59,492 nt of DNA, from positions 1 through 59,492 of IMG/VR virus record IMGVR_UViG_3300044940_000188. One strand, given 5' to 3'. Origin of the DNA: a virus. A program made the translations under genes and the position numbers. The notes beneath the pieces are model-generated. The model had not been told where the DNA came from, did not search any database, and saw only the letters and a list, made by a program, of their open reading frames with translations. Below, piece after piece: positions 26,431 through 50,976 of this stretch (its first letter is position 1; the number at the start of each line of letters is the position of its first letter).

Positions 26431-26738
26431 CAGAGGTCCCTCAAGTACTCAAGAATCCCCGCAGTAATCGGCATTGTGACTTGAGCGCCAACAGGAAACG
26501 ACTGCGCAGTAGTGCCTTCCCGCGCCCGCAAAACAGACAGCACGTTGTACTCGCGCTGGTCGCAGTACATGATCTCGCGGACACCGGTGGCGGGGTCGCG
26601 GACCACGATCACAAACTCGTCGTAGTACGGGTCAGGGTCAGGGAAAAGATCCCCGTTAGAGACCGTAATCGTGGTATCGCCGGCAGCGATCGCCACAGTC
26701 GTAACATCCGACACGTTGTTAGCAAAGATGAAGGCCAT
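26430..26738 (-). CDS. Stand-alone copy (102 aa) of the fibre N-terminal anchor module
   Basis: Contains the motif LSVLRAREGTTAQSFPVGA, comparable to LTVVRGQEGTTAQSW and LTVERGKEGTVARAF in the two neighbouring fibre genes. Confidence 0.6.
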   Translation of the reverse strand: MAFIFANNVSDVTTVAIAAGDTTITVSNGDLFPDPDPYYDEFVIVVRDPATGVREIMYCDQREYNVLSVLRAREGTTAQSFPVGAQVTMPITAGILEYLRDL

Positions 26739-32871: not shown

Positions 32872-34995
32872 TCAACCTCCCATCCTCATACCGGGACGTC
32901 CGGTAGGTCCAACAAACTCACCCTCGACAGGGCGCCGTACCTCCTCGGCGGCAGCGCGGGCTTCCGCGGGGCTGGGCTGTTGCCCGGTGGGGATCATGCC
33001 CGGCGGGCCGGCGCCGGGGGAAGGCCCACCGGGAGGTACGGCATTCATCTGGGCTGCCAGCTCCTCATCAGACGGCACAGTGCGCTCGTGGTCCAGTCCA
33101 AGATTCTGGGCAACGCTACGCAGCACAGTAGCTCGCCCCTGCGGGCCGACAATCGCCATATCGATAGGGTTGGCAGTCAGCTGCAGGAACTCCAACTGCC
33201 GCATCCGATCCTGCTCACGCTTCACAGCATGGTTGACACCACGCACGTCAATGACCTCATCACCGCGGAGAACGCCGGGTTGCGTCAGCATCACCATGTC
33301 GTACAAATTCGTGATGAGTGGTTCAATGACGTCTCGGTCAATGGTGGCAGCAACATTCTGCAAAGTCTTGCTAGCGTTGCCCATAAGCATGGCCAGACCG
33401 GACGCCGTACGCCCTGCACCTCCAACCCGCTCATTACCGAGCATGTAACGCGGCAGGGAGCTGATCTCGTCGGCCATGATAGAAAACTTCTCGTAGACCA
33501 TCAGCAAGTCCTGAGAGTTCGAATTGGGCTGGAAAAACTCGACCGGGCTGCGACCGGAAGACGCGACATTGGGATCGTAACTGACCTCCCACCGCTTCCA
33601 CGGGTACAAAGACGTCTCAGCACCCGGAAGAAGGGCTTCACGGTTGATGACTACCTGCGGACCAGAGGATATGGACAGGTTGTTGACAAGTGAACGAACC
33701 GTGGCGTTACAGACGGTCTGAACATCCTCAAGAAGCTCTGGCAGGCCGGCACCGATCAAGCCACCTGGAATTTTCTCGAAGGACGAAATGTAGTAGGGGG
33801 CTCGCTGTGTCGTGTAGGGATTGATCTGAACCTTGATGATCCAGCGGTCAATAAGCCACGCCGTGACAAAATACTCCTCAACCTCGTCAGGCACTTTCTC
33901 CTCGGGCATCCCCCAGTCACGCAACAGGCGTCCAGAAACAAAACCGGTAAACTCGGCACAGTCAATCAGCGTCGATGACGTAGCCCGACCCCACCTCTCG
34001 CGTTCCTCAAGATCGCGTCGTTCAGCCTCCACGGAACTCCACCACTCAGAGAGCCCGCTGTTCCAAAACCGCTCCAATACCTGCGTGATGGCGTCGTCGT
34101 CATACCCAGGAACTCCTCTCAGCTGTGTCAAATCAGCCCTCGAAAGGCGTATGCGTTCGATGAAATTGGCGTGCTGAACGCGACTGGCACCGGGCGACCA
34201 GTACAAGTCAAATGGTGACACGCGCTCCCAGAACATCTTCGGAACACGCTGTTGGATGGGCGCGCCATTCTGCCACTTGGTCTGAACAACGTTCCTGACC
34301 ACGGGACCCTTGATGACCGCGTACGGAAAGATTGGCAGGTCGATGAGAAACTCAGCTAGGGCCTCGTAATAACCGCCCTCTACCAATATGTCGTTAAGTA
34401 GGCTGGTTGCGGCCGCAGCTTCCTCGGTGGCTTTCTTCTTGCTTGCACGCTTGGCAGCCTTGCGCAACTGCGTCACACGGTCGTCGATCATCTGCTGGTC
34501 GACTGACTGACCGTTCTTCTGAAGGGTAGCAACCTCGGCGTTAACCAACTCGTCGATACTGCGGTTGATATCGTCCGGGATCACCGGTTCTGGGGTTGGG
34601 GTCAACGCCCAGTGCGGCTCAGGACCAAGGTAGACGTCACGCAGCAGGGCGGTGGCAGCCCGGCACTTGGTAGCAGTCAAACGGGCATAGACTTCACTAC
34701 CTCCAAACTTCTTGATCTCGGTTAGGATGTGCGGTGGGTACTGACCGCGGTAGGTCCGAAGTGAGTCAATCAGGCGCTGGGCGATGCCCTCAGAATCGCG
34801 GAAATTCCGCATCTCTGCCAGCTGCCCACGAACAAACGACGCAAGCTGGGAAAGGCTGGCCTCTTCCTCCTGAGCAGCGGCGGCTGCAGCTTCAGCGCGG
34901 TCACGCTCAGCCAGCTGTTGAGGCGACACCACCCGCAACAGGGAACCGGTCTGAGTAGCAACGGGGATAGCCGGAGGGGTAGCCATTAGACCCAT
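32872..34995 (-). CDS. Portal protein
   Basis: 707 aa and located in the terminase-to-scaffold interval. Assigned by size and position; no strict motif. Confidence 0.75.
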   Translation of the reverse strand: MGLMATPPAIPVATQTGSLLRVVSPQQLAERDRAEAAAAAAQEEEASLSQLASFVRGQLAEMRNFRDSEGIAQRLIDSLRTYRGQYPPHILTEIKKFGGSEVYARLTATKCRAATALLRDVYLGPEPHWALTPTPEPVIPDDINRSIDELVNAEVATLQKNGQSVDQQMIDDRVTQLRKAAKRASKKKATEEAAAATSLLNDILVEGGYYEALAEFLIDLPIFPYAVIKGPVVRNVVQTKWQNGAPIQQRVPKMFWERVSPFDLYWSPGASRVQHANFIERIRLSRADLTQLRGVPGYDDDAITQVLERFWNSGLSEWWSSVEAERRDLEERERWGRATSSTLIDCAEFTGFVSGRLLRDWGMPEEKVPDEVEEYFVTAWLIDRWIIKVQINPYTTQRAPYYISSFEKIPGGLIGAGLPELLEDVQTVCNATVRSLVNNLSISSGPQVVINREALLPGAETSLYPWKRWEVSYDPNVASSGRSPVEFFQPNSNSQDLLMVYEKFSIMADEISSLPRYMLGNERVGGAGRTASGLAMLMGNASKTLQNVAATIDRDVIEPLITNLYDMVMLTQPGVLRGDEVIDVRGVNHAVKREQDRMRQLEFLQLTANPIDMAIVGPQGRATVLRSVAQNLGLDHERTVPSDEELAAQMNAVPPGGPSPGAGPPGMIPTGQQPSPAEARAAAEEVRRPVEGEFVGPTGRPGMRMGG

Positions 34996-35016
34996 CCTGT
35001 GGTTAGAATCGTGTCC

Positions 35017-35523
35017 ATGGAAACTGAACTCACCAAATCAGCCCTATCCCAAGAAGTGGCTCTGCCGCAAATCGAAGCATCCGTCGGTCTAGAGCACCTC
35101 TCGGCCACAATCTGCGCTGAACTGGCCGCCGGACTGTCAGAGCCGGCGGACATCCGGGCGAAGTATAACATCAGCAAGGAGCAATGGGACACCCTGCGCC
35201 ACTCGCCAGTTTTCCGGGCTATGATACGGGAAGCGGTCGAGAAGTTCGCCGGAGACTCCAACGCCGGCCGCCGCATCACGATGAAAGCCGAAATCGCCCT
35301 AGAAGACTCAATCCCCACGATATACAGCATGGTACATAACCGGGAAGTGCCGGCCGCCTCACGGCTGGACGCTGCCAAAATTCTGGCAACCCTCGCCAAC
35401 CGCACCGGCAAGATGGCGGAAAACAATAGCAGTGGCGTAGGGTTCTCCGTAAACATCCACATAAACACCGGTGAGAAGAAGGGCGTGGTCATCAACGGTG
35501 AATCAAGTCCACCCACGGACTGA
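35017..35523 (+). CDS. Small-terminase-like or DNA-binding protein encoded on the opposite strand between portal and TerL
   Basis: The plus-frame product has a balanced K/E/D composition and an ...ASRLDAAKILATLANRTGK... segment typical of TerS-like proteins. The co-extensive minus ORF (34986-35516) has 1 Lys in 176 aa and is Ser/Ala/Arg-rich. Start is uncertain: ATG 35017, GTG 35011 or GTG 34999. Confidence 0.6.
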   Translation: METELTKSALSQEVALPQIEASVGLEHLSATICAELAAGLSEPADIRAKYNISKEQWDTLRHSPVFRAMIREAVEKFAGDSNAGRRITMKAEIALEDSIPTIYSMVHNREVPAASRLDAAKILATLANRTGKMAENNSSGVGFSVNIHINTGEKKGVVINGESSPPTD

Positions 35524-36924
35524 CGGCGGCTGCTGTGGAGGCACCGGGTTCAGCCTTGCCATAATCTTCCCCACACTATTCGAGCTAACGCTCAGCGCCA
35601 TGTACTGAAGGCAGTCGGCCAAATCCGACCACGGATGGGTTTTCTCAGGCCTGTCCTCAAGCTCCCCGGTTTTCTTGCGCCGATACCGATACCCATGTTT
35701 CAGAGCGTGAACAAGCGTCGGGCACCCAGGTCCGGAAATCATCAACGCAGGACCGCCATCAATCTGCTGCAGGAACAGCTGCTCCACTGCCCTGATCCGC
35801 GGGTCGATGTCATTGGTCACAGCCGGAAACGCGTCAAAACCGAGGCGTTTAAGGGCCTTGATCGGGGATTCCTCGCCAATCGGTCCTTTGGCGTTGCCGG
35901 CCGGATCGCACACCACGAAGATGCGGCGCCCCATGTAGTGCTGATAGATTAATGGGCGCGTTTCCGTAATAGTGAACTGCTCCAGCCCTTTGTCAGTGCT
36001 GAACAGCTCCCGCATGATCACCAACCGCCCCCGATTCGTAACCTGACCAAACAAACAGGCGGGAGTGCGACCAAAGTCGTGCCCAATCATGATCGGAATA
36101 TGGTCCTGCGGCTCTATGTACTCGTTGACCACGTGAAACTCAGGCTTGAAGCTGGCTCTCCACACAGCCTGCCCACTTAACGACTTGCCATATTTGGCAT
36201 GAACGTGAACATCAACCCAGTCAGGACTGTTGTTCGCTACAAGTAGATCGTAGTACCCGTCTGGTAGGTTCTCGACATTCTCAGCGTTTGGTTCAGTACC
36301 GCCCGGCTGACGGAAGATCGTCCAATTAGGCGGCTTGTCCTTCTCCAGCTTGTGGTACCACTCACTATCCTCGTCCGGGGGGTTCGACTCAGCAACGATA
36401 CCCTTCCACGAGCATGGGGCAATAGCTTTGGCAGGGAATCGCCCAAGACGACCAGAAAGGGCGTCAATGAGCGACGGGGAGACTTCACGAAACTCAGACA
36501 CCCACGCTCCGGTCAGGTTCAGCGACAGCAACCGCTGCTGATCTTCCTTGGTATCTAACGGAATGAGCATCCAATCCGATACCACTTTGGTACCGTCAGG
36601 CAGTGGGGTACGAATCTGGATGGTGTTCTCGGCAACCTTGAAGGTCATGATCGGCCCAAGCCACAGCTGGATGTCCGCCAAACACGTCTGACGAAGTTGC
36701 GGGAGCGTGTTGCGAATGATCGCAAACCGGGTGAGCCGTCGCCCACGGGCATCCGGCGCCTGCATCTTGGCACGACGCAGAAGCTCCATGAAACAACCAG
36801 CCGACTTACCCGAGCCAACCGGACCGATGATGAGTCGAACGAACGACTCGTCAAGCATGAATCGCCCGATGGTTGGAGGGGTAACGTAGTTGAGAACCGA
36901 CGGGTTAGGGTCGTTGGAACTCAC
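35503..36924 (-). CDS. terL: Terminase large subunit
   Basis: Walker A GPVGSGKSAG and Walker B-like GAWVSEFRE. Nuclease acidic motifs IGHDFG, VCDPAG and HPWSDLADC. Confidence 0.9.
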   Translation of the reverse strand: MSSNDPNPSVLNYVTPPTIGRFMLDESFVRLIIGPVGSGKSAGCFMELLRRAKMQAPDARGRRLTRFAIIRNTLPQLRQTCLADIQLWLGPIMTFKVAENTIQIRTPLPDGTKVVSDWMLIPLDTKEDQQRLLSLNLTGAWVSEFREVSPSLIDALSGRLGRFPAKAIAPCSWKGIVAESNPPDEDSEWYHKLEKDKPPNWTIFRQPGGTEPNAENVENLPDGYYDLLVANNSPDWVDVHVHAKYGKSLSGQAVWRASFKPEFHVVNEYIEPQDHIPIMIGHDFGRTPACLFGQVTNRGRLVIMRELFSTDKGLEQFTITETRPLIYQHYMGRRIFVVCDPAGNAKGPIGEESPIKALKRLGFDAFPAVTNDIDPRIRAVEQLFLQQIDGGPALMISGPGCPTLVHALKHGYRYRRKKTGELEDRPEKTHPWSDLADCLQYMALSVSSNSVGKIMARLNPVPPQQPPSVRGWT

Positions 36925-38858
36925 CCGTAATCCTCGACAGCGTAGTAGCCGTTAAGAGCTGACACGACTGCAGTAGTGGTAGTCGTACCCGTATTAGCCC
37001 ACACAACCGGACCAAGTCCAACATTTGCGGCCGGCAAGTCGGACGTTACGTTGGATAGAGTGTAGACCATCCCAGTCTCTAGGTTCACAAGCTCGAGATC
37101 GGCGCGACCGCCACCTGGCGGAACGTACACCCGTAGTTCCAGCAAGGCATCTGCAAAACTGGTTTTAGCCACGCCGATGCTGGTCTTGGTCACAGTACCA
37201 AAGCCGTCATTTCGCATCCACTGAAGGTTGGTGTCGCTTTGATCTGCACCGATGCCAAGGCAATTGAGAAAAGCTGACGGCTCACCGGCTGTATTCATGG
37301 CCGTATACATGCCCATAAATAGGCGCTGGTCCGAACGCACGCTAGGCCAACCGCCACGAATCATGGCAAAGAACCCGCCAGCGGCCGAGCTGCCGCTACA
37401 GCTAACGTAAACCACATTCTGCACGGCATAGCTATTCAAACCAACGGACCCGATGGCGTTCGCCGTCGCATCGGACGTACCAGTGCGACGCATAACCTGC
37501 CCAAGCAGTGTCGTGGCGGAAGGAGAGCGGTTGGAAGTCGCTTGCGTACCAGTACCGGAAATACCGCCGAGACCCTGCAGGTCCATCGTCGTACCGCTGT
37601 ACACCCGAAGCCATCGCTCACGCTTGCCAAGCTGCCCGTTGAACATGGCAAACGGACGCCCATTGGCAGCCCGGAACGACGGCAATGACAAAGCCCCGTA
37701 ATCGTGACCGTACGCACGAGCCGATCCAACGGCGGGGGCAGAAGGCATGGGGGTGGAATCAAAACGGGCATGAGCAGTAAAGCGTGGATTACCACCATCA
37801 TTGACCAACCCGGACAGACCAGCAAAAGTCCCCGCATTGTTGTACTGGACTTGGGTATCCAGGCCACCAGGAAAACCATTGACCCCCGAAACAGAAAGGG
37901 TAGTACCGGACATGCTGAGACCGGAACCAAGGTTAATGGGCGAGACATTCCCAGTGGAACCGCGCCCAAGCAATTGGCTGGGTCCTATCGGTATGTCGTT
38001 GAGAGGTCCAGATGTAGCCGCCGCTCGACCGAGTACCGAGTTGGCTACTGCAGGGTAAAATCTGTCATACGCAAGAACGTTAGGCTTGACAATCCACACA
38101 CCAAGCTCGATAGCAATGTGGCCCTTGTCCCCCTCAGTTATGAAGTCTGCAAACGTCGCATGTGCCCCATCAATAGAAAAGCCAGATACATCAGCATAAC
38201 CGGCGTTACCAAACACCGGAGGCGAAGAAGGACCAGTCGAACGTAACACCTGCCCGACAGCACCAAGCGGCACTTCAACAATTTGCCCAGACCCGTTGCT
38301 GTAGAACACCTTCCAATTACCAGCAGTGTGGTCATTGGTAGAGGTAATAGCGTGCGAACGTTGGTGGAACCCGCTCGAAATCGATGAATCAATCGTCCAA
38401 ACAGTCCCGCCGCCGCTGACCACTATGTCGCCGTAGTCACCATCTGGCACTCCACCAGTCACCGCCGCAAACGACGGTGCAGCGGACGGCCCGTTCGACT
38501 TCAAGACCGTGCCGGACGCACCGAGAGCAAGCTCAGTAACCTGCCCAGCCCCGTTGCTGTAGAACACCTTCCAATTACCAGCAGTGTGGTCATCAGTGCT
38601 GGTCATCGTGTGCTGGCGATCGTGAGAGTTAGCAGACTCCTGTACGATCAGCTCCATCTGGTCGCCGTTGATCTTGATGAGCCCAAGGTCTTCCAGCTCC
38701 TCAAGACGGACAAACGACGGGCGCGGGTCGCGGACGCGCCGCTCGTAAATGTTGAGCGACGAGATTATGAGCTGCAACGCAAGCGTATGCGACCGAATGG
38801 CGTCCGTAACAGTCGGCCGCGATGGGTATGCCCGGGAGGTTTTGATCTTTACCGCCAT
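36921..38858 (-). CDS. Fibre-like or receptor-binding-type protein with an internal 86-aa duplication
   Basis: The repeat H..TS..DHTAGNWKVFYSNG.GQ..E..LG..G.VL.S.GPS..P.F occurs twice. A 44-nt stretch is identical at 38292-38335 and 38550-38593. Confidence 0.7.
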   Translation of the reverse strand: MAVKIKTSRAYPSRPTVTDAIRSHTLALQLIISSLNIYERRVRDPRPSFVRLEELEDLGLIKINGDQMELIVQESANSHDRQHTMTSTDDHTAGNWKVFYSNGAGQVTELALGASGTVLKSNGPSAAPSFAAVTGGVPDGDYGDIVVSGGGTVWTIDSSISSGFHQRSHAITSTNDHTAGNWKVFYSNGSGQIVEVPLGAVGQVLRSTGPSSPPVFGNAGYADVSGFSIDGAHATFADFITEGDKGHIAIELGVWIVKPNVLAYDRFYPAVANSVLGRAAATSGPLNDIPIGPSQLLGRGSTGNVSPINLGSGLSMSGTTLSVSGVNGFPGGLDTQVQYNNAGTFAGLSGLVNDGGNPRFTAHARFDSTPMPSAPAVGSARAYGHDYGALSLPSFRAANGRPFAMFNGQLGKRERWLRVYSGTTMDLQGLGGISGTGTQATSNRSPSATTLLGQVMRRTGTSDATANAIGSVGLNSYAVQNVVYVSCSGSSAAGGFFAMIRGGWPSVRSDQRLFMGMYTAMNTAGEPSAFLNCLGIGADQSDTNLQWMRNDGFGTVTKTSIGVAKTSFADALLELRVYVPPGGGRADLELVNLETGMVYTLSNVTSDLPAANVGLGPVVWANTGTTTTTAVVSALNGYYAVEDYG

Positions 38859-38870
38859 GCGCCAAGTCTA

Positions 38871-39575
38871 TCAGAAGTAATGGTCCAACACCCACGGATG
38901 ACTTTGGCGGACATCCTCATCCCACGGCTTGCGAAGCCCGTGGAACGAAACAAGCCGAGCACCCTTTGGGAGCCGACCAAGATTACGGAAAGTCCTGAAC
39001 GCGTGCACCCCGTCCTTGTCGGTCCACGTCGCTTCGTTCGGACCGAGGATGTAGTTCAACCACGCTTGGTCAGACCCAGCAAAGCCGGCCTCTCTGGCAG
39101 CGAGGGGAGACTTCACGGGGTCGAACTCCGTCCACACCTGCGGTCGGGCATCATAATTCATCATCCACATCGTACCGTTGTAGACCGTGTTCTTGAACGG
39201 CCACGCCCAGATGATGAAATCTTCCTCCCGGTCGAAAAGCGGCGTCAGGTCACCAGTGATGACTACATCGAGGTCAATGCTCACGAACCTTTTTGCGATC
39301 GTCGCCGCGACCGCTGGATCAAAAATGCGTAAACGACGATAGCAGGAAGGCTGAAGAGGACCATTAAGAGACTTAAGGTCAGCATGGTCGCTCCAAATAG
39401 GCACAGTGCGAACGCCCGGAAGAAAACCCCCCTGGCGGTCCGTAATGCAGACAAAATCGAACGGCTTCGCATAGTGCCGAGCAACCATCCTAAACAGCGT
39501 GTTAACGTGTGTCTGGTCGAACTGCGAGCGATAGCGCGTCAGTGGCGTCCAGAGCCAGCATACTACGGTAATCAC
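38871..39575 (-). CDS. GT-A type (DxD) nucleotide-sugar glycosyltransferase, paralog of 41257-41985
   Basis: Motifs SCYRRLRIF, IDLDVVITGDL and GSDQAWLNY. GTG 39575 has AGGAGA upstream and overlaps the upstream stop (GTGA). Confidence 0.7.
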   Translation of the reverse strand: MITVVCWLWTPLTRYRSQFDQTHVNTLFRMVARHYAKPFDFVCITDRQGGFLPGVRTVPIWSDHADLKSLNGPLQPSCYRRLRIFDPAVAATIAKRFVSIDLDVVITGDLTPLFDREEDFIIWAWPFKNTVYNGTMWMMNYDARPQVWTEFDPVKSPLAAREAGFAGSDQAWLNYILGPNEATWTDKDGVHAFRTFRNLGRLPKGARLVSFHGLRKPWDEDVRQSHPWVLDHYF

Positions 39576-39751
39576 GCTGATCTCCTCAACACGTGCCGCA
39601 CAATCTCAGCAACATCCTTGCGATCGTACTTCACAAGTACCTGCAACGCCCCGCGCAAGTATGACTTTGCCCGGGCGTCACCCATCGCAGCCGCCCGGCA
39701 CTTGGCCTTAAGAACATCTCCGTCAGGAAGGCTGGCAAACGGGTCCTTCAT
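39572..39751 (-). CDS. 59-aa ORF inside the glycosyltransferase operon (below the ORF-track cutoff)
   Basis: ATG 39751 overlaps the upstream stop (ATGA) and its own stop overlaps the next start (GTGA). Translation: MKDPFASLPDGDVLKAKCRAAAMGDARAKSYLRGALQVLVKYDRKDVAEIVRHVLRRSA. Confidence 0.45.
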   Translation of the reverse strand: MKDPFASLPDGDVLKAKCRAAAMGDARAKSYLRGALQVLVKYDRKDVAEIVRHVLRRSA

Positions 39752-40515
39752 ATCCGCAATTTCCCGTCAAAGTACAGAACGTCGTAGTGCTTGCTGAGAA
39801 AATCACGCATCTCCTCCGCCGTGACGTCCTTCGGACGCCGCAGGACAACCCTAACCGCCGGACCATTGTCCATGGAAGCTAGCTTGAGCAGGAACCCGCC
39901 GGCAGAACCAAGATCAACAGCATGAACACCATCGGCCGCCAGACGCGCCGCTATGCACGTCGCAGCGGGACCACAGGACAACACGACGAGATTGGCACCC
40001 TGCACTTGCCTAACGAGCTTGTCAGCAACCTTGTAGGACTGATGCGACGGACAAACGACGTGGGTCACAGAAGCCGCAGTCATACTGATCACAGCGAGCA
40101 GGGAGTTGCCTTTTTCACACACGACGTGCACATCTTTACCATCCCACAGCTGCTGTACAAGGACCAAATACTCCTTGCACAAGATCCACGGCGAGCTGTC
40201 GGGCCGGCTCACGAATGCCGACCCATAAACCCGGCCCATGTCTACGTACTCCGCGAACGACGTCATGTGCCGCACCCACCCGTCCAGCTTTGGTCCGTCC
40301 TTGTGCATGGTCGGGATAGCTGGCAGAAGATTGGGCGGCGGGTGTTTCAGGATGTGCCGCAGCTCGGCTGCAAGCTCCTCGTTGGCCGGCTCACGCACCT
40401 GCGAGCTACCGCGCATGAGCTTGAGTTCACCATCGCCGTAGCGAGACAGCGACATACCACCCACCACCCTCTTCATGGTCTCGAACTCGTCGAGAACCTT
40501 TGGCCATGTCCTCAC
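39748..40515 (-). CDS. GT-D (DUF1792-like) glycosyltransferase
   Basis: Motifs SLSRYGDGELKL and LSCGPAATCIAARLAADGVHAVDLGSAG. GTG 40515 overlaps the GT2 stop (GTGA) and has GGGAGAGG upstream. Confidence 0.65.
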   Translation of the reverse strand: MRTWPKVLDEFETMKRVVGGMSLSRYGDGELKLMRGSSQVREPANEELAAELRHILKHPPPNLLPAIPTMHKDGPKLDGWVRHMTSFAEYVDMGRVYGSAFVSRPDSSPWILCKEYLVLVQQLWDGKDVHVVCEKGNSLLAVISMTAASVTHVVCPSHQSYKVADKLVRQVQGANLVVLSCGPAATCIAARLAADGVHAVDLGSAGGFLLKLASMDNGPAVRVVLRRPKDVTAEEMRDFLSKHYDVLYFDGKLRI

Positions 40516-41264
40516 AGCGGCACCCTCTCCCACGTGAAATTCAACGGTATCGCCTTCGGCAGCTTTTCTCGGTTTTTCCGTCGCCGAATCTCACTGTACC
40601 GACTCGTGTCCCGACTGAGCACGGTCTCAGACGCGTCAGGCACGGAGTGAGTAGTATGCACATGCAACGGCATGGAGGCGGGCAGAAGCCGCGGCTCAAC
40701 GATGGCCGTCAGGTCCCGAAGGAATGGCGTCCCGCCACCCAGCGACCCGGAGTAGTCCTCGTCGTAGCCACCAGCCCGCCAGTACAGCTCTCTGGTGATG
40801 AGGTATGAGTCCACGTGCGGGTGAATCTCCACGAACGTCGCAGCCGGGTCCGCAGCGTCCTTCTTGCGCGTGAAATCAGCCGCCCCAACCCGCCACCGGC
40901 AGAACCGGTACCACCGCTCCGAGTCAAGCTCAATGTTGATGGCAGCAGCCATGGTCTCGGGCGGCACCGTGTGGTCGACATCGACGTGCAAAAGCCACGG
41001 CGTCTTGGCTACGTAGGCCCCAAGGTTACGCGCCCCACCCCGGTTCCACGGAATGTCCTCCTTGATGCGGTACAGCTCCACCGGCAGGGCGCGGACCATG
41101 CACCGCAAGGCCTCCTCTGCCGTCATATCAGGGCTGCCGTCGTCAACCACGATGATGTGAAGCCGCTTGAGCACCGCCGGGTCGTACTGCTCCCACACGT
41201 CGACATGCTTCCTGAGCATCCAGAAGTTCCGGTAGTACGGGATGATGAGGGAGATGTCATTCAC
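40512..41264 (-). CDS. Family-2 glycosyltransferase
   Basis: Motifs SLIIPYYRN, HIIVVDDGSPD, HVDVDH and AGGYDEDY. Confidence 0.8.
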   Translation of the reverse strand: MNDISLIIPYYRNFWMLRKHVDVWEQYDPAVLKRLHIIVVDDGSPDMTAEEALRCMVRALPVELYRIKEDIPWNRGGARNLGAYVAKTPWLLHVDVDHTVPPETMAAAINIELDSERWYRFCRWRVGAADFTRKKDAADPAATFVEIHPHVDSYLITRELYWRAGGYDEDYSGSLGGGTPFLRDLTAIVEPRLLPASMPLHVHTTHSVPDASETVLSRDTSRYSEIRRRKNREKLPKAIPLNFTWERVPL

Positions 41265-41985
41265 GCCAGTAGTCCTTGATCCATGGGTACCGTTTCTGTG
41301 CCTGCCGGCACCACGGCTTGAGTGCCCCCGGGGTACTAACCACAGTAGTCCCCGGCGCTGGACCGTCAGGCGACAACCACTTGAGGTACGCCAGCCCGTC
41401 GGCCGCAGTGAACCCCGCCGTGGGTGGATACAACCGGTAAGACAACCACCCTTGGTCCGACCCGAAGCACCGTGCCTTCCGCGCCTCTGCCGGCGACTTC
41501 TCCGGGTCGAACTCGTCCCAGATGTAAGTCATTGTACCCGGCTTGTGAAAGTACAGCCCACCAGCCACCTTCCGCCAGACGAACCGCCGGTCCACCCACC
41601 CGACGAAGTTCTCGGCACGGGTGAGCAGATGGTCAATGTTGCCAGTGATGATGACGTCGACGTCGATGGCAAGGATGCGCGGTCCGAGCACATTGGCAGC
41701 CTCGGCAGAGAAGTTCCACAACCGACGGTAGCAGGAGGGGAACAGCTCCCCGTGAGGGCTGCGGGCATGACTGACATTTGTCGGGTCCATGACCACGCGT
41801 ATTTCGGGCCGCAGGCCCGTGGGGTCGTCGGTTACGCAGACCAGCTCCCACGGCAAAGTAATGTGCCGGGCCAGCATCGCATAGAGGATGTTGTAGTAGT
41901 CCGGCAGGAATGAGGTACCGCGCTCGTGTTTTGGATCGGTCCACTTCCAGACGACTATGCTGGTAATCTGCCCTGACTCGTGCAC
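41257..41985 (-). CDS. GT-A type (DxD) glycosyltransferase, paralog of 38871-39575
   Basis: SCYRRLWNF, IDVDVIITGNI, GSDQGWLSY and the C-terminal KPW...YPWIKDYW align with the paralog. The start is set to GTG 41985 because the alignment begins at ITSIVVW; the track start 42201 would overlap the methyltransferase by 247 nt. Confidence 0.65.
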   Translation of the reverse strand: MHESGQITSIVVWKWTDPKHERGTSFLPDYYNILYAMLARHITLPWELVCVTDDPTGLRPEIRVVMDPTNVSHARSPHGELFPSCYRRLWNFSAEAANVLGPRILAIDVDVIITGNIDHLLTRAENFVGWVDRRFVWRKVAGGLYFHKPGTMTYIWDEFDPEKSPAEARKARCFGSDQGWLSYRLYPPTAGFTAADGLAYLKWLSPDGPAPGTTVVSTPGALKPWCRQAQKRYPWIKDYWRE

Positions 41986-42596
41986 AGCTGGAGCCAGTGC
42001 AAGATCCTCTCCCGATGAGTCGCGCCAACCATCGCGGTACGACTTGTGAGCACGCGTGGGGGCGGGTACGGCGCCAACCGACGAAGAACCTCCTCCTGCC
42101 GATGTCGCAGCTCCCGAATCTTCCGCACGTCGAAGTCCACCATCACGTAGGTGACTTTTTCGAATTCGCCGCTGTCTAATAGGTCGTCGAGGATGTCGCA
42201 TTCCGCACCTTCGCAGTTCAGTTTCAGGAACACGGTGGCAGGAGAGACGAGATTCTCACGAAACCAAGTTGAAGCCTTGACGAAATTGCACAACACTGGC
42301 TCGTAACCACGGTCAGTCCAATTGGTCTTTTTCCACAGGCTAGCACCCTTGCTACCTGCGTCAATAAGCTCTGCCTGCGTGTCCCGATCCCACAGCCCGA
42401 AACGGTGAACGACTGTCGTGCGGGTATCAGCAATCTCCTGCAAGTGTGCCCAACAGAACGGCGCCGGCTCGAAACAGTGAATCTCGTCAAACCCCCACTC
42501 TTGGGCAACGGCGAGTGACTGCCCGATGTTGGCACCGACATCAAGGAACACTTGCGGAAGGTGCAAGTATTCAGTATGCTCCGCTCCGTTGGTCAT
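41955..42596 (-). CDS. FkbM-family SAM-dependent methyltransferase
   Basis: Motifs VFLDVGANIGQS and HCFEPAP. Confidence 0.8.
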   Translation of the reverse strand: MTNGAEHTEYLHLPQVFLDVGANIGQSLAVAQEWGFDEIHCFEPAPFCWAHLQEIADTRTTVVHRFGLWDRDTQAELIDAGSKGASLWKKTNWTDRGYEPVLCNFVKASTWFRENLVSPATVFLKLNCEGAECDILDDLLDSGEFEKVTYVMVDFDVRKIRELRHRQEEVLRRLAPYPPPRVLTSRTAMVGATHRERILHWLQLCTSQGRLPA

Positions 42597-42608
42597 GTGC
42601 TTCCTCTT

Positions 42609-42634
42609 AGGCCCCCGAAAAGGGGGCCTTTTTT
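42609..42634 (+). terminator. Canonical hairpin plus T6 oriented for the PLUS strand, inside the minus-strand operon
   Basis: AGGCCCCC gaaaa GGGGGCCT followed by TTTTTT on the plus strand. On the minus strand the hairpin is preceded by an A-run and followed by TAAGAGGAAGC with no U-tract. Confidence 0.5.
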
Positions 42635-42926
42635 ATTCCGGAGGGATGATCCGCGGGTGTGGCACGAGAGGCTCCGGCTCAGCCTCCAGAGGCTCAACCG
42701 TATCGACCGGACCCATGTCGACGAGCTTCAGTATTACAGGCGAGCAGCCGTAGACCGGCTTCTGCTCGGCCGCACGACTAAGCACAGCCCGCTGGGCATC
42801 GACACGCCGCCGGGCCGCTACCGCGATGACCACCGGTACGTGCACGACTGCGTGATAAATGTGCACGGGCGGGAGAGAGTGGGTAGGAGAAACGGCATCG
42901 TCGTCTGAATCGTCGTCAGTACTCAC
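42633..42926 (-). CDS. Hypothetical 97-aa protein with an acidic N-terminus and one hydrophobic segment
   Basis: GTG overlaps the upstream stop (GTGA). The alternative plus ORF 42552-42908 is Arg-rich and looks spurious. Confidence 0.45.
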   Translation of the reverse strand: MSTDDDSDDDAVSPTHSLPPVHIYHAVVHVPVVIAVAARRRVDAQRAVLSRAAEQKPVYGCSPVILKLVDMGPVDTVEPLEAEPEPLVPHPRIIPPE

Positions 42927-43180
42927 TGGTCACCCCCGGTGATGTTGACCTTCATAGGACGAGACTTGAGGAGCCGCTCGCGCAATTCGTTGAGGTCACC
43001 GTAGGTGTAGACCAGCAACAGCTTAAAGCCCATGAACGCGATGGTCAGATTGAAGTTGTTGAGGACGTGCTCATGCTCGATGGTGAGTTCGACGAAGGTG
43101 AAGTCGACCCAGTTGTAACGGGACGGGAAGAACAGCGCCATCCACTGAATCTCGAGCGATGCCATGAACCGTACTGGCAT
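42923..43180 (-). CDS. Hypothetical 85-aa protein
   Basis: ATG 43180 is the first start after the RHH stop, with GGAGG 14 nt upstream. The track start 43291 overlaps the RHH gene by 86 nt. Confidence 0.5.
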   Translation of the reverse strand: MPVRFMASLEIQWMALFFPSRYNWVDFTFVELTIEHEHVLNNFNLTIAFMGFKLLLVYTYGDLNELRERLLKSRPMKVNITGGDQ

Positions 43181-43205
43181 GTAGGCAACGTCTACCTCCG
43201 TAGGC

Positions 43206-43400
43206 TCAAGATCGGGATTTGGCACGGGCGGCTTCCTTCTTGGCAGCGGAAAGAACACGCTCGATGTACTGGCGCACGGCCGCGCGGACATGTTCGCTGA
43301 CAGTCAGGCCAGTCTTGTCTGACAGCCGATGAAGCTCGGCAATGTCATCGTCGGGGACAATCACATGGATGCGGGTTCCGTTCAGGGACGGGCGTGGCAT
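43206..43400 (-). CDS. Ribbon-helix-helix (Arc/CopG-like) DNA-binding protein, first gene of the minus block
   Basis: TRIHVIVPDDDIAELHRLSDKTGLTVSEHVRAAVRQYIERV shows a beta-alpha-alpha pattern. AAGGAGG lies 7 nt upstream of the ATG. Confidence 0.7.
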   Translation of the reverse strand: MPRPSLNGTRIHVIVPDDDIAELHRLSDKTGLTVSEHVRAAVRQYIERVLSAAKKEAARAKSRS

Positions 43401-43517
43401 AGGTGTACCTCCTTGGTTGGCATAGTGTGGGCCTATTGGGGTGTGGTGTCAAGGGGTGAGTTTCGTGGGTCTGTTTGGATTTGGGGCTGACATATTTGCG
43501 AAGGCCATAAGCAGGAT

Positions 43518-43562
43518 CCCCACCCCCCACCCCCCTTGGCCCGGTACCCCCTACCCCCGCCC
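43518..43562 (-). other. Run of seven G-tracts on the minus strand (C-tracts on plus) in the divergent control region; G-quadruplex or i-motif potential
   Basis: Plus strand reads CCCC A CCCCCC A CCCCCC TTGG CCC GGTA CCCCC TA CCCCC G CCC. Confidence 0.5.
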
Positions 43563-43654
43563 ACTGACGCCCGACAGCCCGAGGCGTTCCTAAGTCACGG
43601 TATATGAAGGGCGCGCATGGTGCATGCCCGCAATCGCTGCACACGCGCAGCGAC

Positions 43655-43669
43655 TTACAAACCTTGTAA
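43655..43669. promoter_or_regulatory. Palindrome S1: TTACAAACCTTGTAA
   Basis: Exact inverted repeat. Ends 2 nt before the GGAG SD of gene 43683. Confidence 0.9.
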
Positions 43670-43682
43670 CTGGAGTACTGAC

Positions 43683-44225
43683 ATGACTAAGCAGACCAAC
43701 ACGATCACGAATCCTGCCGAACTGTCGCGTATCGCGAAAACGTTCGCGCGAGCCTACACGCTCAACGTGTCGGCGGCCGACATCCTGACGGAGTCGGCAA
43801 GCATGTTCGCGGCGCGTCTGAAGCGCGAGGAACGTGCCAGCACGAAGGAAGAAATCAACTTCATGGTCGCCGAAATCGTCGCACTCTGCGGCTTGCAGAA
43901 GCTACCGTCGCGGGCGGTGCGCGAGTCGGAAATCCGCAGCGTGTTCCGGAACGCGGCGGCTTTCACGGCCGTGATGCAGAAGATCGGCAACACGCGCATC
44001 GGCTACGCGCCGGCGATCCAGCTGGCGCGGAAGTGCGATAGCCTGCCGGTCGCCGACGTCGTGGCATGGTACAAGTCCGGTAAGCCGATCGCAGGAACCG
44101 CGACGCCGAAGGCGAAGCGCGCACGCGCCGTGAAGACGTTGACGCACCTGTGCGACGAAAAGTCGTTGCCGCGCGACTTCCGCGACGCGCTGGCGCGGCT
44201 CATGGCGAAGTACTCGCTGGCCTGA
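43683..44225 (+). CDS. First early gene, 180-aa hypothetical protein
   Basis: ATG 43683 has GGAG 7 nt upstream; the track start 43617 is rejected. Bracketed by palindromes S1 and S2. Confidence 0.65.
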   Translation: MTKQTNTITNPAELSRIAKTFARAYTLNVSAADILTESASMFAARLKREERASTKEEINFMVAEIVALCGLQKLPSRAVRESEIRSVFRNAAAFTAVMQKIGNTRIGYAPAIQLARKCDSLPVADVVAWYKSGKPIAGTATPKAKRARAVKTLTHLCDEKSLPRDFRDALARLMAKYSLA

Positions 44226-44226
44226 G

Positions 44227-44241
44227 TTACAAGGCTTGTAA
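44227..44241. promoter_or_regulatory. Palindrome S2: TTACAAGGCTTGTAA (17 bp including the G...C flanks)
   Basis: Exact inverted repeat starting 1 nt after the stop codon. Confidence 0.9.
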
Positions 44242-44256
44242 CTCACGTCCCTTCAC

Positions 44257-44285
44257 CCCCACGGCTTCACGGCCGTGGGGTTTTT
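44257..44285 (+). terminator. Intrinsic terminator
   Basis: Stem CCCCACGGC / GCCGTGGGG followed by TTTTT. Confidence 0.8.
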
Positions 44286-44310
44286 CGCTTCATGCTCTGG
44301 GAAAATCACG

Positions 44311-44547
44311 ATGACCCCGCACATTGACGGTCATGACTTGACGCCCACGGAACTGATGAACCTTGCGCTTTCATGGCTGGAAGTTTTCAACGAAACCTGC
44401 GACGAGCATGCGTGGCGCGTGGCCGCCAGCATCTACAACGATCTCGCCGAACGGCGACAGGAAGCCATTCGGCTGAACCTCGAAAGCTCCACCTACATCG
44501 GGATGGTAGCTGATGACTTGAGCCGCGAACTGATGTCGTGGACCTGA
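44311..44547 (+). CDS. Hypothetical 78-aa protein
   Basis: ATG 44311 lies downstream of the terminator. The SD is weak. Confidence 0.55.
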   Translation: MTPHIDGHDLTPTELMNLALSWLEVFNETCDEHAWRVAASIYNDLAERRQEAIRLNLESSTYIGMVADDLSRELMSWT

Positions 44548-44564
44548 GCCTACCTGACACACGT

Positions 44565-44579
44565 TTACAAGCCTTGTAA
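44565..44579. promoter_or_regulatory. Palindrome S3: TTACAAGCCTTGTAA, with flanks extending to an imperfect 29-bp palindrome
   Basis: Sequence cacacgtTTACAAGCCTTGTAAacatgtg. Confidence 0.9.
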
Positions 44580-44593
44580 ACATGTGCCTGCAA

Positions 44594-44623
44594 CCCCACG
44601 GCCTGACAGCCGTGGGGTTTTTT
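44594..44623 (+). terminator. Intrinsic terminator with the same stem as 44257-44285
   Basis: Stem CCCCACGGC / GCCGTGGGG followed by TTTTTT. Confidence 0.8.
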
Positions 44624-44780
44624 GTGTGCACATTTCGTAGGGACTCCGTTTATGCGCCCATTTTTCGCCGTATGCCGGGCTGGCGGGCTGGCGGGCCGGA
44701 GGGGGCGGAGGCAGTGAGGAGAGGCGCCGCCTCTGGCGGCGTTATCATCGGCGCAAATCATGAGCCGTGGGGCTGAAGTA

Positions 44781-45171
44781 TTTGTAGTGGTTTGCAGTCA
44801 GAGGCAGCGAGGGCGGATCACTACAAACAAACCCAGGCGGAGAGCGGTCTATAAATATATATAGTTATTATAGTATTTATAGTGATGTCTCCGCCGAGAA
44901 CCTACGTAAGGCTTTTCGGTTTCGTGGGTTTGAATTGATGGGGTGTGTGTAGAAGATTAGGGTCTTCTATTTCTAAAGCGCGCTATAAATACTATTATTC
45001 GTTTTTTCTTTAGAAACAATGACTTCTAACCCAGCTGCTGAACTGCGCTTCGAGGGTTTATAGCAGCGCGCTGCTTTTAACCCCCACAGCCCCACAAACT
45101 CTCCCTCTGCCACTTAACAACCCGATTATTTATAGTCATCGAAACAGCCCTACTATAATTACTATAAATAC
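44781..45171. repeat. AT-rich non-coding island with 5 exact CTATAAATA copies in both orientations, nested in short inverted repeats
   Basis: CTATAAATA at 44849-57 (+), 44874-82 (-), 44983-91 (+), 45127-35 (-) and 45162-70 (+). Inverted-repeat pairs: 44781-89/44819-27, 44836-43/44888-95, 44950-56/44963-69 and 44971-78/45008-15. A 14-bp palindrome lies at 45062-75. Confidence 0.85.
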
Positions 45172-45207
45172 CCAGCCTTTCTCAACAGGTGATTTCAGCA
45201 TCACTTG

Positions 45208-45222
45208 TTACAAAATTTGTAA
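45208..45222. promoter_or_regulatory. Palindrome S4: TTACAAAATTTGTAA
   Basis: Exact inverted repeat in the leader of the early operon. Confidence 0.9.
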
Positions 45223-45259
45223 ATTTCCGAGTCTCTAAACAAGTCTCGGAAATCTTTTT
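45223..45259 (+). terminator. Terminator or attenuator-like hairpin in the 5' leader of gene 45303
   Basis: Stem ATTTCCGAG / CTCGGAAAT, 13-nt loop, then CTTTTT. Confidence 0.55.
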
Positions 45260-45302
45260 CACAGTGCCTACTCCCTAAACAAACCATGAAGGAGAAATCA
45301 TC

Positions 45303-45521
45303 ATGAACCGTACCAACCTGATCGAAGTCATCGCTGGTGCCGCCGAAACGATTGCTGACACGGTGGGCCAGCACCTGTCCACCCTGCCACCCGACCACCT
45401 GTTCGCACTGGAGTCGGCGTACTACGACCTGACGGGAAACCCGCTCTTCAGTGAGGCGCAACGCCAGCAGCTGCTTGCCCGTGCCAACCGCCCCCCCGCC
45501 GCTGGCGTGGGTCGCTTCTGA
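45303..45521 (+). CDS. Hypothetical 72-aa early protein
   Basis: AAGGAG lies 8 nt upstream of the ATG. Confidence 0.6.
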   Translation: MNRTNLIEVIAGAAETIADTVGQHLSTLPPDHLFALESAYYDLTGNPLFSEAQRQQLLARANRPPAAGVGRF

Positions 45522-48321: not shown

Positions 48322-48350
48322 TCTACTAACATCTGTAAGGAGACATGACC

Positions 48351-49691
<1,341 letters not shown>

Positions 49692-49755
49692 TGACACGTG
49701 TAGACCTCACCAACGGTACCAATTACCTGACTATCGAAGTAACGAAGGAGTAGAC

Positions 49756-50976
49756 ATGAGTAGCCAGAGGTTTACAGAAATGAAGTCGGCCGTGCTGATG
49801 CACGTGCCGTTCTTCGCTGCGCTCTTGCTTGACCGGATGACGATGAAGGTTGGCAAGTTCCCCAACATCCCGACGGCCGGCACCGATGGCAAGACGGTCT
49901 GGTTCGACGAGGATTTTCTCAACAGCCTGACACTCAAGGAGGCGATGTTCGTGTGCTGCCATGAGGTAGCGCACGCCATGTGGATGCACATGGACCGGGC
50001 CAAGAAATACGAGAGGCTCGGCACTGTGAACGGCAGGCCTTTCAATGCCATGAAGTGGAACACTGCCGCTGACTACGTCATCAACTATCTGCTGGTGGAG
50101 GCTGGCATTGGCAAAATGCCTGCAGGCGGACTGTACGACGGCCGGTACACGTCGAGCATGTCGGTAGAGGAGGTGTACGCACAGCTGCCGGACCCGCCAC
50201 CGTCTGGAGGTGGTGGCGGTAGTACTGGTGACGGCGGTGACAATGGCGACGGTGACGGCAGTGACGGCGGTGGCGGCCGTGACGCCATGCCGGGGTTCGA
50301 CGTGCACGTACCTGCTCAGTCCGAGGTTTCCCAAGAAGAGTGGAAGCGCGCTGTCGCTAGCGCCGTGCAGGCTGCCAAGACCGCCGGCAAGCTGCCCGGC
50401 GCACTGGAGCGGTTCGCTGAGGCATTACTTAACCCGCAGGTCACGTGGCAGGAGGTGCTGCGCCGACGACTGACGGCGCTGGTGGGGCGCGACGCGCGCA
50501 CGTGGGCAAAGCTGCATCGGCGCCGGCTGGTGGCACAGGGGGTAGTTATGCCAGGTTACGCCGGTCATAGGGCCGGCACGGTGGTGGTTGTTGTGGACAC
50601 GTCCGGGTCTATCAGCAGTCAGGAGCTTACGGTGTTCCTGACAGAGGTACAGGCAATTCTCGACGACGTGCAGCCGCAGGAGACCGTCCTCGTTGCGTGC
50701 GACACCAAAGTGCAAGATGTGCACACGCTGTATCCAGGCGATAGCCTCACAGCCCTGCAGCTCAAGCTGGGTGGAGGCGGCGGCACGTCCTTCGTCCCGC
50801 CATTCGAGTGGGTGGCGGAGCAGAGTGTGTACCCCGACACGCTGGTGTACCTAACCGACATGCACGGTACGTTCCCTGCTGACCCGGGCTACCCGGTCAT
50901 CTGGTGTGCGACGAGTGACCGGGAAGGACCGTTCGGCGAGACGATTCGTCTTGAGGTTGGAGGTGGGCTGCTGTGA
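49756..50976 (+). CDS. VWA-domain protein with an N-terminal DUF2201-type metallopeptidase-like domain (CobT-like partner)
   Basis: HEVAHAMWMH, a Gly/Asp linker, and the MIDAS motif VVVVDTSGSIS. ATG 49756 has GAAGGAG upstream. Confidence 0.8.
   Translation: MSSQRFTEMKSAVLMHVPFFAALLLDRMTMKVGKFPNIPTAGTDGKTVWFDEDFLNSLTLKEAMFVCCHEVAHAMWMHMDRAKKYERLGTVNGRPFNAMKWNTAADYVINYLLVEAGIGKMPAGGLYDGRYTSSMSVEEVYAQLPDPPPSGGGGGSTGDGGDNGDGDGSDGGGGRDAMPGFDVHVPAQSEVSQEEWKRAVASAVQAAKTAGKLPGALERFAEALLNPQVTWQEVLRRRLTALVGRDARTWAKLHRRRLVAQGVVMPGYAGHRAGTVVVVVDTSGSISSQELTVFLTEVQAILDDVQPQETVLVACDTKVQDVHTLYPGDSLTALQLKLGGGGGTSFVPPFEWVAEQSVYPDTLVYLTDMHGTFPADPGYPVIWCATSDREGPFGETIRLEVGGGLL

Follow-up and report, generated by a model that had tools for sequence, protein, structure and literature searches.

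The window analysed here is a whole JGI metagenome contig of 59,492 nucleotides (nt) from a virus (IMG/VR record IMGVR_UViG_3300044940_000188). At positions 38871-42596 it carries six co-directional open reading frames (ORFs) on the minus strand, comprising an FkbM methyltransferase, a glycosyltransferase (GT) of family GT2, a GT-D enzyme (DUF1792), two paralogous DxD enzymes, and an ORF of 59 amino acids (aa), termed orf59. An earlier note, made from the sequence alone, had described these six ORFs as a glycosylation cluster. All of them are present at these coordinates, the motifs quoted for the methyltransferase, GT2, GT-D and DxD enzymes are all found in the translations, and the enzyme classes are upheld by TIGR01444, PF00535, PF08759 and phrog_1962. 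On balance we consider it probable that this cassette serves to O-glycosylate a virion protein in the cytoplasm, adding a short glycan capped by methylation. In the direction of transcription, the genes are:

41955-42596, minus strand: FkbM-family S-adenosylmethionine (SAM)-dependent methyltransferase, 213 aa (NCBIfam TIGR01444, E=2.8e-15; phrog_8156, 2.7e-9)
41257-41985, minus strand: predicted GT8-like retaining-type GT-A glycosyltransferase, paralogue 1, 242 aa (phrog_1962 'glycosyltransferase', 4e-6; DxD motif DVD)
40512-41264, minus strand: short soluble GT2 (GT-A) glycosyltransferase, 250 aa (PF00535, E=7.7e-11)
39748-40515, minus strand: GT-D fold (DUF1792) glycosyltransferase, 255 aa from GTG 40515 (PF08759, E=2.5e-22)
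39572-39751, minus strand: orf59, translationally coupled at both ends
38871-39575, minus strand: predicted GT8-like retaining-type GT-A glycosyltransferase, paralogue 2, 234 aa (phrog_1962, 4e-17), the signature gene of the cassette family

The earlier description of stop and start codons overlapping as ATGA or GTGA holds for three junctions, namely GT2 to GT-D (GTGA, where the GTG at 40515 is used and not that at 40533), GT-D to orf59 (ATGA), and orf59 to the second DxD enzyme (GTGA). It does not hold for the methyltransferase and the first DxD enzyme, which overlap by 31 nt (start GTG 41985), nor for the first DxD enzyme and the GT2, which overlap by 8 nt (GTGAATGA). With ATG 42201 as start (the longest ORF), the first DxD enzyme would share 247 nt with the methyltransferase gene. 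GTG 41985 was chosen as start because the conserved N-terminal strand is kept, and because an independent contig (L003, 242 aa) has this start called as well. A 12-nt gap separates the second DxD enzyme from a gene for a 645-aa fibre-like protein, which in turn overlaps the large terminase gene (terL) by 4 nt. The genes of the cluster are not chance ORFs, since they have hundreds of conserved homologues.

Enzymes of the cassette

The methyltransferase passes the TIGR01444 cutoff (57 bits; cutoff 37.7) and stays under the gathering score of Pfam PF05050 (18.6 bits; 22.7). By these scores it appears to be a divergent member of the FkbM family. The motif QVFLDVGANIGQS is found in its translation, and residues 16-27 hold the SAM motif VFLDVGANIGQS; we take V/I-x-D-x-G-A-x-x-G to be the SAM-binding motif I of the FkbM family. 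A PDB relative was not found by sequence. The enzyme is predicted to O-methylate, and thereby cap, a sugar.

The GT2 enzyme scores 42.6 bits against PF00535 (gathering score 23.3) and displays the motifs IVVDDGSPD, HVDVDH (with DVD as DxD) and GGYDEDYSG. Structure matches of its AlphaFold2 (AF2) model (mean predicted confidence, pLDDT, 94.6) are all GT-A enzymes of GT2/GT27. These are generic enzymes (polysaccharide synthases, WrtF, TarP, ppGalNAc-T) which give no hint of the acceptor, and the generic GT2 entries in the PDB align over the N-terminal ~110 residues only. The PDB GT2 matches include 5HEA, which was deposited under the name 'Putative glycosyltransferase (GalT1)'.

The GT-D enzyme reaches 80.2 bits against PF08759 (gathering score 27). 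Its residues 6-204 match the DUF1792 domain of Streptococcus parasanguinis GalT1/dGT1 (PDB 4PHR/4PFX) at E=3.5e-19, and within its motif SRYGDGE the residues YGDGE are aligned to FGDGE of 4PHR. The DXE motif of dGT1 is reportedly metal-binding, according to the paper on that structure. TIGR03728 (SP_1767 family) is matched at 5e-22, far under its cutoff of 290.75 bits. The neighbouring orf59 has no family match in Pfam, PHROG or NCBIfam, and is found only in the near-identical relatives L009-L011 and in L003.

The two DxD enzymes are paralogues (36% identity, E=1.5e-45), with AIDVDV and SIDLDV as DxD motifs. Neither of them matches Pfam (including PF01501 Glyco_transf_8) or NCBIfam. Their family is large, with more than 1,111 homologues at 90% clustering, all unnamed, and with 3,874 clusters at 50% identity (1,690 of those at E<=1e-10); none of the homologues listed bears a precomputed Pfam domain. 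The AF2 model of paralogue 2 (pLDDT 94.3) was compared to the PDB by Foldseek, and the top matches are all GT8 enzymes: LgtC (4e-10), GlyE (3e-9), glycogenin, Skp1 alpha-GalT and 3TZT, with template modelling (TM) scores of 0.55-0.69. The family profile matches glycogenin in the PDB at E=0.03, in the columns DLD/DAD (DxD), GSDQ/GGDQ (GxDQ) and KPW. Paralogue 1 has no His before its G-x-x-KPW motif. Among the viral structure matches in BFVD are phage proteins from uncultured sources annotated 'Glycosyl transferase, family 8', as well as fusions of MptE-like domains with the GT8-like fold. Both DxD enzymes are hence predicted to adopt a GT8-like GT-A fold outside the sequence-profile membership of CAZy GT8.

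All six proteins are free of transmembrane segments; hydropathy over 19 residues peaks at 1.69, in a Rossmann-type strand. The cluster encodes no flippase, polymerase or initiating phosphoglycosyl transferase.

Occurrence and position in other genomes

Relatives of the GT8-like gene are found on 415 IMG/VR stretches. We analysed 83 loci, of which 80 are from IMG/VR and the others are L002, L004 and L006. In 66 of these a GT2 gene is close to the GT8-like gene, mostly directly upstream and with overlapping or abutting codons; GT2 followed by the GT8-like gene is the conserved core of the cassette. The GT-D gene is present at 32 of the 83 loci, and a second GT8-like copy at many of them. Multi-enzyme clusters of this kind had been regarded as rare in the earlier note. 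This view does not survive the number of IMG/VR stretches, the frequency of the GT2 partner and the ~3,900 clusters of the family at 50% identity.

The periphery of the cassette is variable. Just upstream of recognised cassettes, add-on enzymes are MptE-like (12), Methyltransf_24 (10), FkbM (8) and Methyltransf_23 (4), together with a CmcI-type rhamnosyl O-methyltransferase (2), a sulfotransferase (1) and a radical SAM enzyme (1, radical SAM/SPASM). Upstream neighbours of sister cassettes also include collagen-repeat proteins (3), and one sister cassette encodes a CMP-sugar-type cytidylyltransferase (PF02348; L004, 4558-5235). These enzymes hint at chemically diverse glycans in the sister cassettes, possibly with nonulosonic acids. 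If the cassette does glycosylate virions, the variability would suggest diversifying selection on the glycan, as with bacterial surface glycans.

The position of the cassette is regular. At 24 loci of SU10-like podoviruses it lies directly upstream of the genes for terL, portal and major capsid protein (MCP). At 34 loci of HK97-type siphoviruses it lies between the portal, protease and MCP genes on one side and head-completion, tail-terminator or tail-tube genes on the other. Among 117 downstream neighbours, the non-enzyme Pfam families that recur (two or more members) are without exception those of virion or assembly proteins (tail tube 11, Tail_completion_gp17 10, Phage_HCP 8, SU10_portal 6); families matched once include two of HNH endonucleases. 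On the upstream side the neighbours are additional sugar-modifying enzymes, and then Phage_capsid (8), S78 protease (6) and portal (4). On a lambda-like contig the cassette stands between the terminase and portal genes, it is also present on an HK97-like contig from an NCBI assembly, and in Tetraselmis viridis virus S20 it is found between a putative MCP gene and a head-closure gene. Citrobacter phage phiNP has a reduced pair, pmgP-like and pmgQ-like, just upstream of the small terminase gene (terS).

Identity of the GT8-like enzymes to the window enzyme is equal (52-55%) across unrelated backbones. With the like position in these backbones, this points to a cassette that is mobile and yet keeps its position. 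The order of genes is shuffled between lineages, since a contig of a metagenome-assembled genome (MAG) of Thermodesulfobacteriota (L095, 2900-6019) matches the four enzymes of the window at E=1e-61 to 1e-72 in the differing order GT8-like, FkbM, GT2, GT-D, with another GT8-like gene 5 kb downstream. Bacterial genomes with the cassette are diderm: Bradyrhizobium, and MAGs of Steroidobacteraceae, Alpha- and Betaproteobacteria, Binatia, Thermodesulfobacteriota and Phycisphaerae. A description of the cassette or of the GT8-like family was not found in the literature searched (capsid or virion glycosylation, DUF1792 with phage, pmgQ).

Acceptor, alternatives and surrounding genome

A virion protein, the host envelope and DNA had been named side by side in the earlier note as possible carriers of a methylated glycan. 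The evidence favours the first of them. We infer the virion-protein acceptor, the order of the enzymes and the size of the glycan from the genes, in the following scheme. Donors would be nucleotide sugars of the host, because no sugar-activation family is matched among the window ORFs scanned. The core pair of GT2 and GT8-like enzyme (38871-39575) would attach the inner sugars to Ser, Thr or Tyr of the acceptor, for which a capsid, fibre or other protein is a candidate. Chain extension or branching, to about four sugars at most, would then fall to the GT-D enzyme and the other GT8-like paralogue, and the FkbM methyltransferase would O-methylate one sugar, probably the cap. Decoration may take place before or during virion assembly. 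The cassette would share its transcript with the fibre-like gene, terL and the other genes of the leftward structural block, and would mostly be coupled to them in translation.

Several observations argue for this scheme. The cassette recurs at a set place inside the morphogenesis modules of unrelated backbones. The enzyme kinds match those of bacterial cytoplasmic protein O-glycosylation (dGT1/Fap1, GlyE/PsrP, self-glucosylating glycogenin). MptE-like domains occur in 12 members of sister cassettes, and the flagellin glycosyltransferase Maf belongs to the same Pfam family. The GT2 appears to be distantly homologous to gp37 of mycobacteriophage Corndog and gp109 of mycobacteriophage Che8. The absence from the cluster of any membrane, flippase, polymerase or initiating phosphoglycosyl transferase component also fits. 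Furthermore, the genome is complete and apparently that of a virulent phage: the first and last 127 nt of the window are identical, and this exact overlap indicates a circular assembly of a whole genome of ~59.4 kb. Finally, pmgO and pmgQ of phage P1 belong to a late operon and are non-essential, as an accessory decoration of the virion would predict.

Other points weigh against virion-protein glycosylation. That this phage group carries a virion glycan at all is something we infer from genes. The cluster contains no recognisable initiating protein O-glycosyltransferase and no GtfA/B-type enzyme, and GT8 and GT2 enzymes are, by the structure matches, equally typical of the synthesis of lipopolysaccharide (LPS) core and polysaccharides. 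The GT8-like family does not align with Che8 gp110 in hhalign (Prob 0.4%), and the cluster has no detectable similarity to the glycosyltransferases reported as essential for capsid glycosylation, Che8 gp110 and Corndog gp38. Morons of unrelated function are known to occur in late operons. The promoter and terminator scan was uninformative. Short Ser/Thr-rich C-terminal tails of MCPs, resembling those of the mycobacteriophage acceptors, were considered as an acceptor signature and rejected: several siphovirus MCPs near cassettes end in ..GSVGSPA, ..IGSTT or ..AGTSNT, but gp5 of HK97, which has no cassette, also has such a tail (..GTFSSGS). The MCP of the window equals that of a cassette-less Rhizobium phage in length and in the kind of its C-terminus.

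The earlier note had also proposed the adjacent fibre as the obvious acceptor, and had correctly placed the cassette between a small unit led by a ribbon-helix-helix (RHH) gene (43206-43400) on one side and the fibre-like gene followed by terL on the other. The two latter genes are:

36921-38858, minus strand: 645-aa tail-fibre/receptor-binding-like protein with two ~48-aa DUF5907-type repeats (weak DUF5907 match)
35503-36924, minus strand: large terminase subunit (terL; phrog_2, E=8e-25), the start of the packaging/head module which the cassette precedes

Homologues of the 645-aa protein are mosaic and bear PF18454 (Mtd_N), PF19264 (DUF5907) and PF12789 (PTR). The gene stands beside the cassette only in three near-identical relatives (L009-L011); at the other 21 SU10-like loci the cassette lies beside terL without it, and siphovirus cassettes lie between capsid and tail genes. 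The fibre-like protein is thus a possible acceptor, a candidate not specifically implicated. A 704-aa gene beside terL in Rhizobium phage RHph_TM3_14A displays no similarity to it.

Remodelling of the host envelope is unlikely, though a credible alternative to virion glycosylation. In this case the soluble enzymes would work at the inner membrane face and add methylated sugars to LPS, exopolysaccharide or capsule, with lipid A-core or an undecaprenyl-linked intermediate as target, and so block superinfection or the adsorption of progeny to debris. LgtC, the best structure match of the GT8-like enzymes, is a lipooligosaccharide galactosyltransferase. The GT2 resembles polysaccharide synthases and wall-teichoic-acid glycosyltransferases, its N-terminal half weakly matches phrog_841 (GtrB-like, E=2.4e-4), and a PagL lipid A deacylase match lies in one related cassette neighbourhood. 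Core-acting GT8 enzymes of the WaaI/WaaJ type work as soluble or peripheral proteins and do not depend on a flippase of their own. On the other hand, the cluster encodes no GtrA/GtrC, Wzx/Wzy or other membrane protein, the homologues of the GT-D enzyme with solved structures belong to a protein-glycosylation pathway, and in unrelated backbones the cassette is consistently flanked by capsid genes and by tail or packaging genes, whereas lysogeny or lysis modules are not its neighbours. Lysogenic conversion is unlikely here, given a complete genome in which the ORFs scanned include no integrase. The seroconversion considered in the earlier note is weakened by the same points.

A different soluble target, such as a host cytoplasmic protein, a small molecule, or a free or secreted glycoconjugate, appears distinctly improbable. 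The place in the late operon would then be an accident of moron insertion. The enzymes are soluble, late-operon morons with unrelated functions are well known, and P1 pmgO and pmgQ are dispensable for plaque formation, all of which would fit. However, independent insertion at equivalent head or tail places in at least three unrelated backbones suggests a link to virion assembly, and the varied add-ons (extra glycosyltransferases, methyltransferase families, sulfotransferase) fit a surface-exposed, diversifying glycan better.

Hypermodification of DNA, with a methylated oligosaccharide on a modified phage base evading restriction, is very unlikely, in line with the earlier note: multi-glycosyltransferase DNA glycosylation has a precedent in other phages (Pyle et al., 2024, as far as it is reported in PMC12619734) and a MazZ-like domain (3568-4197) may allow some manipulation of the nucleotide pool, but the window ORFs scanned include no dCMP/dUMP hydroxymethylase, no thymidylate-synthase-like, PurZ-like or other base-replacement enzyme and no DpdA-type enzyme, the cassette sits in morphogenesis and not in replication modules, and none of the structure or profile matches of the four enzymes is a DNA glycosyltransferase. 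The only DpdA match is that of the RHH segment, at E=0.02, and the MazZ-like domain is the sole nucleotide-pool enzyme among these ORFs.

Judged by its genes, the window is an SU10-like podovirus genome. Its terL and that of Rhizobium phage RHph_TM3_14A share 46% identity, it also encodes a major head protein (MCP, 29855-30841), internal virion proteins, tail fibres (23584-27796) and T7-type fibre N-termini, and the related contig L004 has SU10 portal and adaptor domains. A search of 36900-43400 against 50,697 phage records gave no nucleotide match, hence a close cultured relative is lacking. The replication module comprises DNA polymerase A, primase-helicase, SNF2 and PD-(D/E)XK genes. The window has no tRNA genes, and none of its ORFs scanned matches an integrase or recombinase. 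A DarB-like ORF of 3,413 aa (6335-16576, minus strand) takes up 17% of the genome, and phrog_10089, an antirestriction family, is matched by the last ~950 residues at its C-terminus (E=4e-51). The features around the cassette and further genes of the window are:

43206-43400, minus strand: RHH (CopG-type) protein, 64 aa (PF01402 RHH_1, E=4.6e-8), first gene of the leftward block
42923-43291 and 42633-42926, minus strand: two small ORFs of 122 aa (100 aa from an internal start) and 97 aa, between RHH gene and cassette
42609-42629, no strand assigned: G+C-rich hairpin, AGGCCCCC-GAAAA-GGGGGCCT, from the terminator-like scan, 13 nt upstream of the methyltransferase start codon
3568-4197, minus strand: dATP/dGTP diphosphohydrolase N-terminal domain, MazZ-like, 209 aa (PF18909, E=7.9e-24)
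49600-50976, plus strand: DUF2201 protein (putative metallopeptidase and VWA-like domain; E=2e-35 and 6e-30), in the early/replication block

The RHH gene diverges from rightward early genes that start at 43617 and may encode a regulator, outside the enzymes of the cassette. It heads the same arrangement in the relatives L003 and L004, which also have two small genes at the equivalent place before the cassette. The two small ORFs of the window match nothing in Pfam, PHROG or NCBIfam. The T-run of the hairpin lies on the plus strand, antisense to all adjacent genes; two like plus-strand hairpins are found at 44257-44280 and 44592-44619. Promoter and terminator sites in 34500-45500 are no more numerous than in shuffled sequence, and the limits of transcription units were therefore derived from gene overlaps.

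At the junction of the contig ends there is an 81-bp (27-codon) tandem repeat, with ~3 copies in 59252-59492 and continuing at the 5' end. It lies just upstream of the primase-helicase gene (263-3121), and may be a coding repeat or an origin/iteron array. A hexanucleotide repeat (TGAGCC x12, 48446-48517, plus strand) is located inside a 448-aa ORF (48345-49691) without a Pfam match. Between portal and terL (34986-35523) two near-coextensive ORFs of 174 aa (plus) and 176 aa (minus) oppose each other, one of which is possibly the small terminase; no similarity was found to the putative small terminase upstream of terL in RHph_TM3_14A. Two relatives, L004 and L015, have their terL unit in the opposite orientation with respect to the portal.

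Comparison with known systems

Gtr systems (GtrA/GtrB/GtrC), by which temperate phages convert the O-antigen, consist of a membrane-embedded flippase, a bactoprenol glycosyltransferase and a periplasmic transferase, and adjoin lysogeny modules. The window shares with them phage-borne glycosyltransferases and the weak overlap of its GT2 with GtrB-like phrog_841. In contrast, its cassette proteins are all soluble, an integrase was not found in the ORFs scanned, and the genes lie in the morphogenesis block. The chlorovirus protein PBCV-1 A064R joins cytoplasmic GT-A domains with a methyltransferase domain and contributes to a methylated glycan on the major capsid protein. However, PBCV-1 is a giant virus of eukaryotes, its glycan is N-linked, and A064R is a single multidomain protein; it is absent from the top structural matches.

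The pathways for serine-rich-repeat adhesins of streptococci are similar in their enzymes. Homology of the GT-D enzyme to the DUF1792 domain of dGT1/GalT1 in the Fap1 pathway is clear, and the GT8-like model matches GlyE of the PsrP pathway (3e-9). In both cases soluble cytoplasmic enzymes would act one after another on a protein destined to leave the cell. Unlike these pathways, the window has neither a GtfA/GtfB initiating pair nor an accessory Sec system, and no gene for a serine-rich-repeat acceptor was recognised in it. The resemblance is one of enzyme toolkit, not of pathway membership.

In phage P1, pmgO-pmgP-ppp-pmgQ (L098, record 79592-82150) form an operon with a late promoter and are annotated with a 'putative morphogenetic function'. 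PmgQ belongs distantly to the GT8-like family, sharing 22% identity (E=1.6e-10) with the window enzyme 38871-39575 and 43% with its homologue in phiNP, and PmgO is related to 'sialyltransferase-like' genes of the S20 cassette (pmgO to S20 gene 49, 1e-19). The P1 genes are far more divergent than the cassettes above, and BLAST of pmgN, pmgO, pmgP and pmgQ gave no counterpart to the GT2, GT-D or FkbM enzymes of the window. By CRISPR interference (CRISPRi), pmgO and pmgQ are non-essential and dispensable for plaque formation (PMC10695390). pmgO, pmgP and pmgQ may represent a reduced glycosylation module.

This comparison leads to a wider hypothesis, to which we tentatively give a little under an even chance: the cassette would be a widespread, modular and previously unrecognised virion-glycosylation system of diderm-infecting phages, with pmgO-pmgQ of P1 as a reduced version. 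Its core would be GT2 and a GT8-like (PmgQ-type) enzyme, with GT-D, extra GT8-like, MptE-like, methyltransferase and sulfotransferase genes as swappable parts, and it would move between podovirus and siphovirus backbones, always into the head or tail block. If so, glycan coats on tailed-phage particles would be common in soil and water, well beyond mycobacteriophages. This would bear on adsorption, particle stability, aggregation, environmental persistence and immune recognition in therapy, as well as on the reading of virion proteomics and cryo-EM densities, and would provide a function for a large family without a Pfam model. Cultured carriers are at hand with P1 (pmgO/pmgQ), Citrobacter phage phiNP and Tetraselmis viridis virus S20/SI1.

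The closest functional precedent is phage-encoded virion glycosylation in the mycobacteriophages Che8 (gp108-110), Corndog (a cluster with gp37 and gp38) and Myrna (Freeman et al., 2023, as far as it is reported in PMC12363180, PMC12619734 and PMC13313380). Glycosylated virion proteins have been identified in Corndog and Che8 (PMC12363180). In mycobacteriophages, virion glycosylation is reported to shield particles from antibodies. For tailed phages other than mycobacteriophages, virion glycosylation is not reported in the literature that could be searched. The mycobacteriophage operons resemble the cassette as phage-encoded multi-glycosyltransferase operons, and in Corndog they likewise belong to the structural module, where the capsid protease and MCP genes follow directly downstream of them. 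Methyltransferases are linked to glycosyltransferase clusters in actinophage annotation (PMC13313380).

At the sequence level, BLASTP detected no significant similarity between the cluster proteins and Che8 gp107-111 or Corndog gp33-38, with no match below E=1. Profile comparison of the GT2 family by hhalign, with single-sequence templates, reaches Corndog gp37 (Prob 91%, E=1e-6, 183 columns) and Che8 gp109 (Prob 82%, E=1e-5, 193 columns). These alignments extend past the generic N-terminal GT2 match, and both genes sit inside the glycosyltransferase clusters of their phages. The GT2 of the window appears to be a distant, near full-length homologue of both proteins. In addition to the differences in gp110 and gp38 mentioned above, gp108 and gp36 likewise have no detectably similar counterpart in the cluster. 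Carriers of the cassette are diderm (Bradyrhizobium, proteobacterial MAGs) whereas hosts of the mycobacteriophages are actinobacteria, and the system of the window is known from its genes alone. Virion glycosylation by phages is thus already known from mycobacteriophages; the signature enzymes here differ, being a GT8-like and a GT-D enzyme, unmatched in Che8 gp107-111 and Corndog gp33-38.

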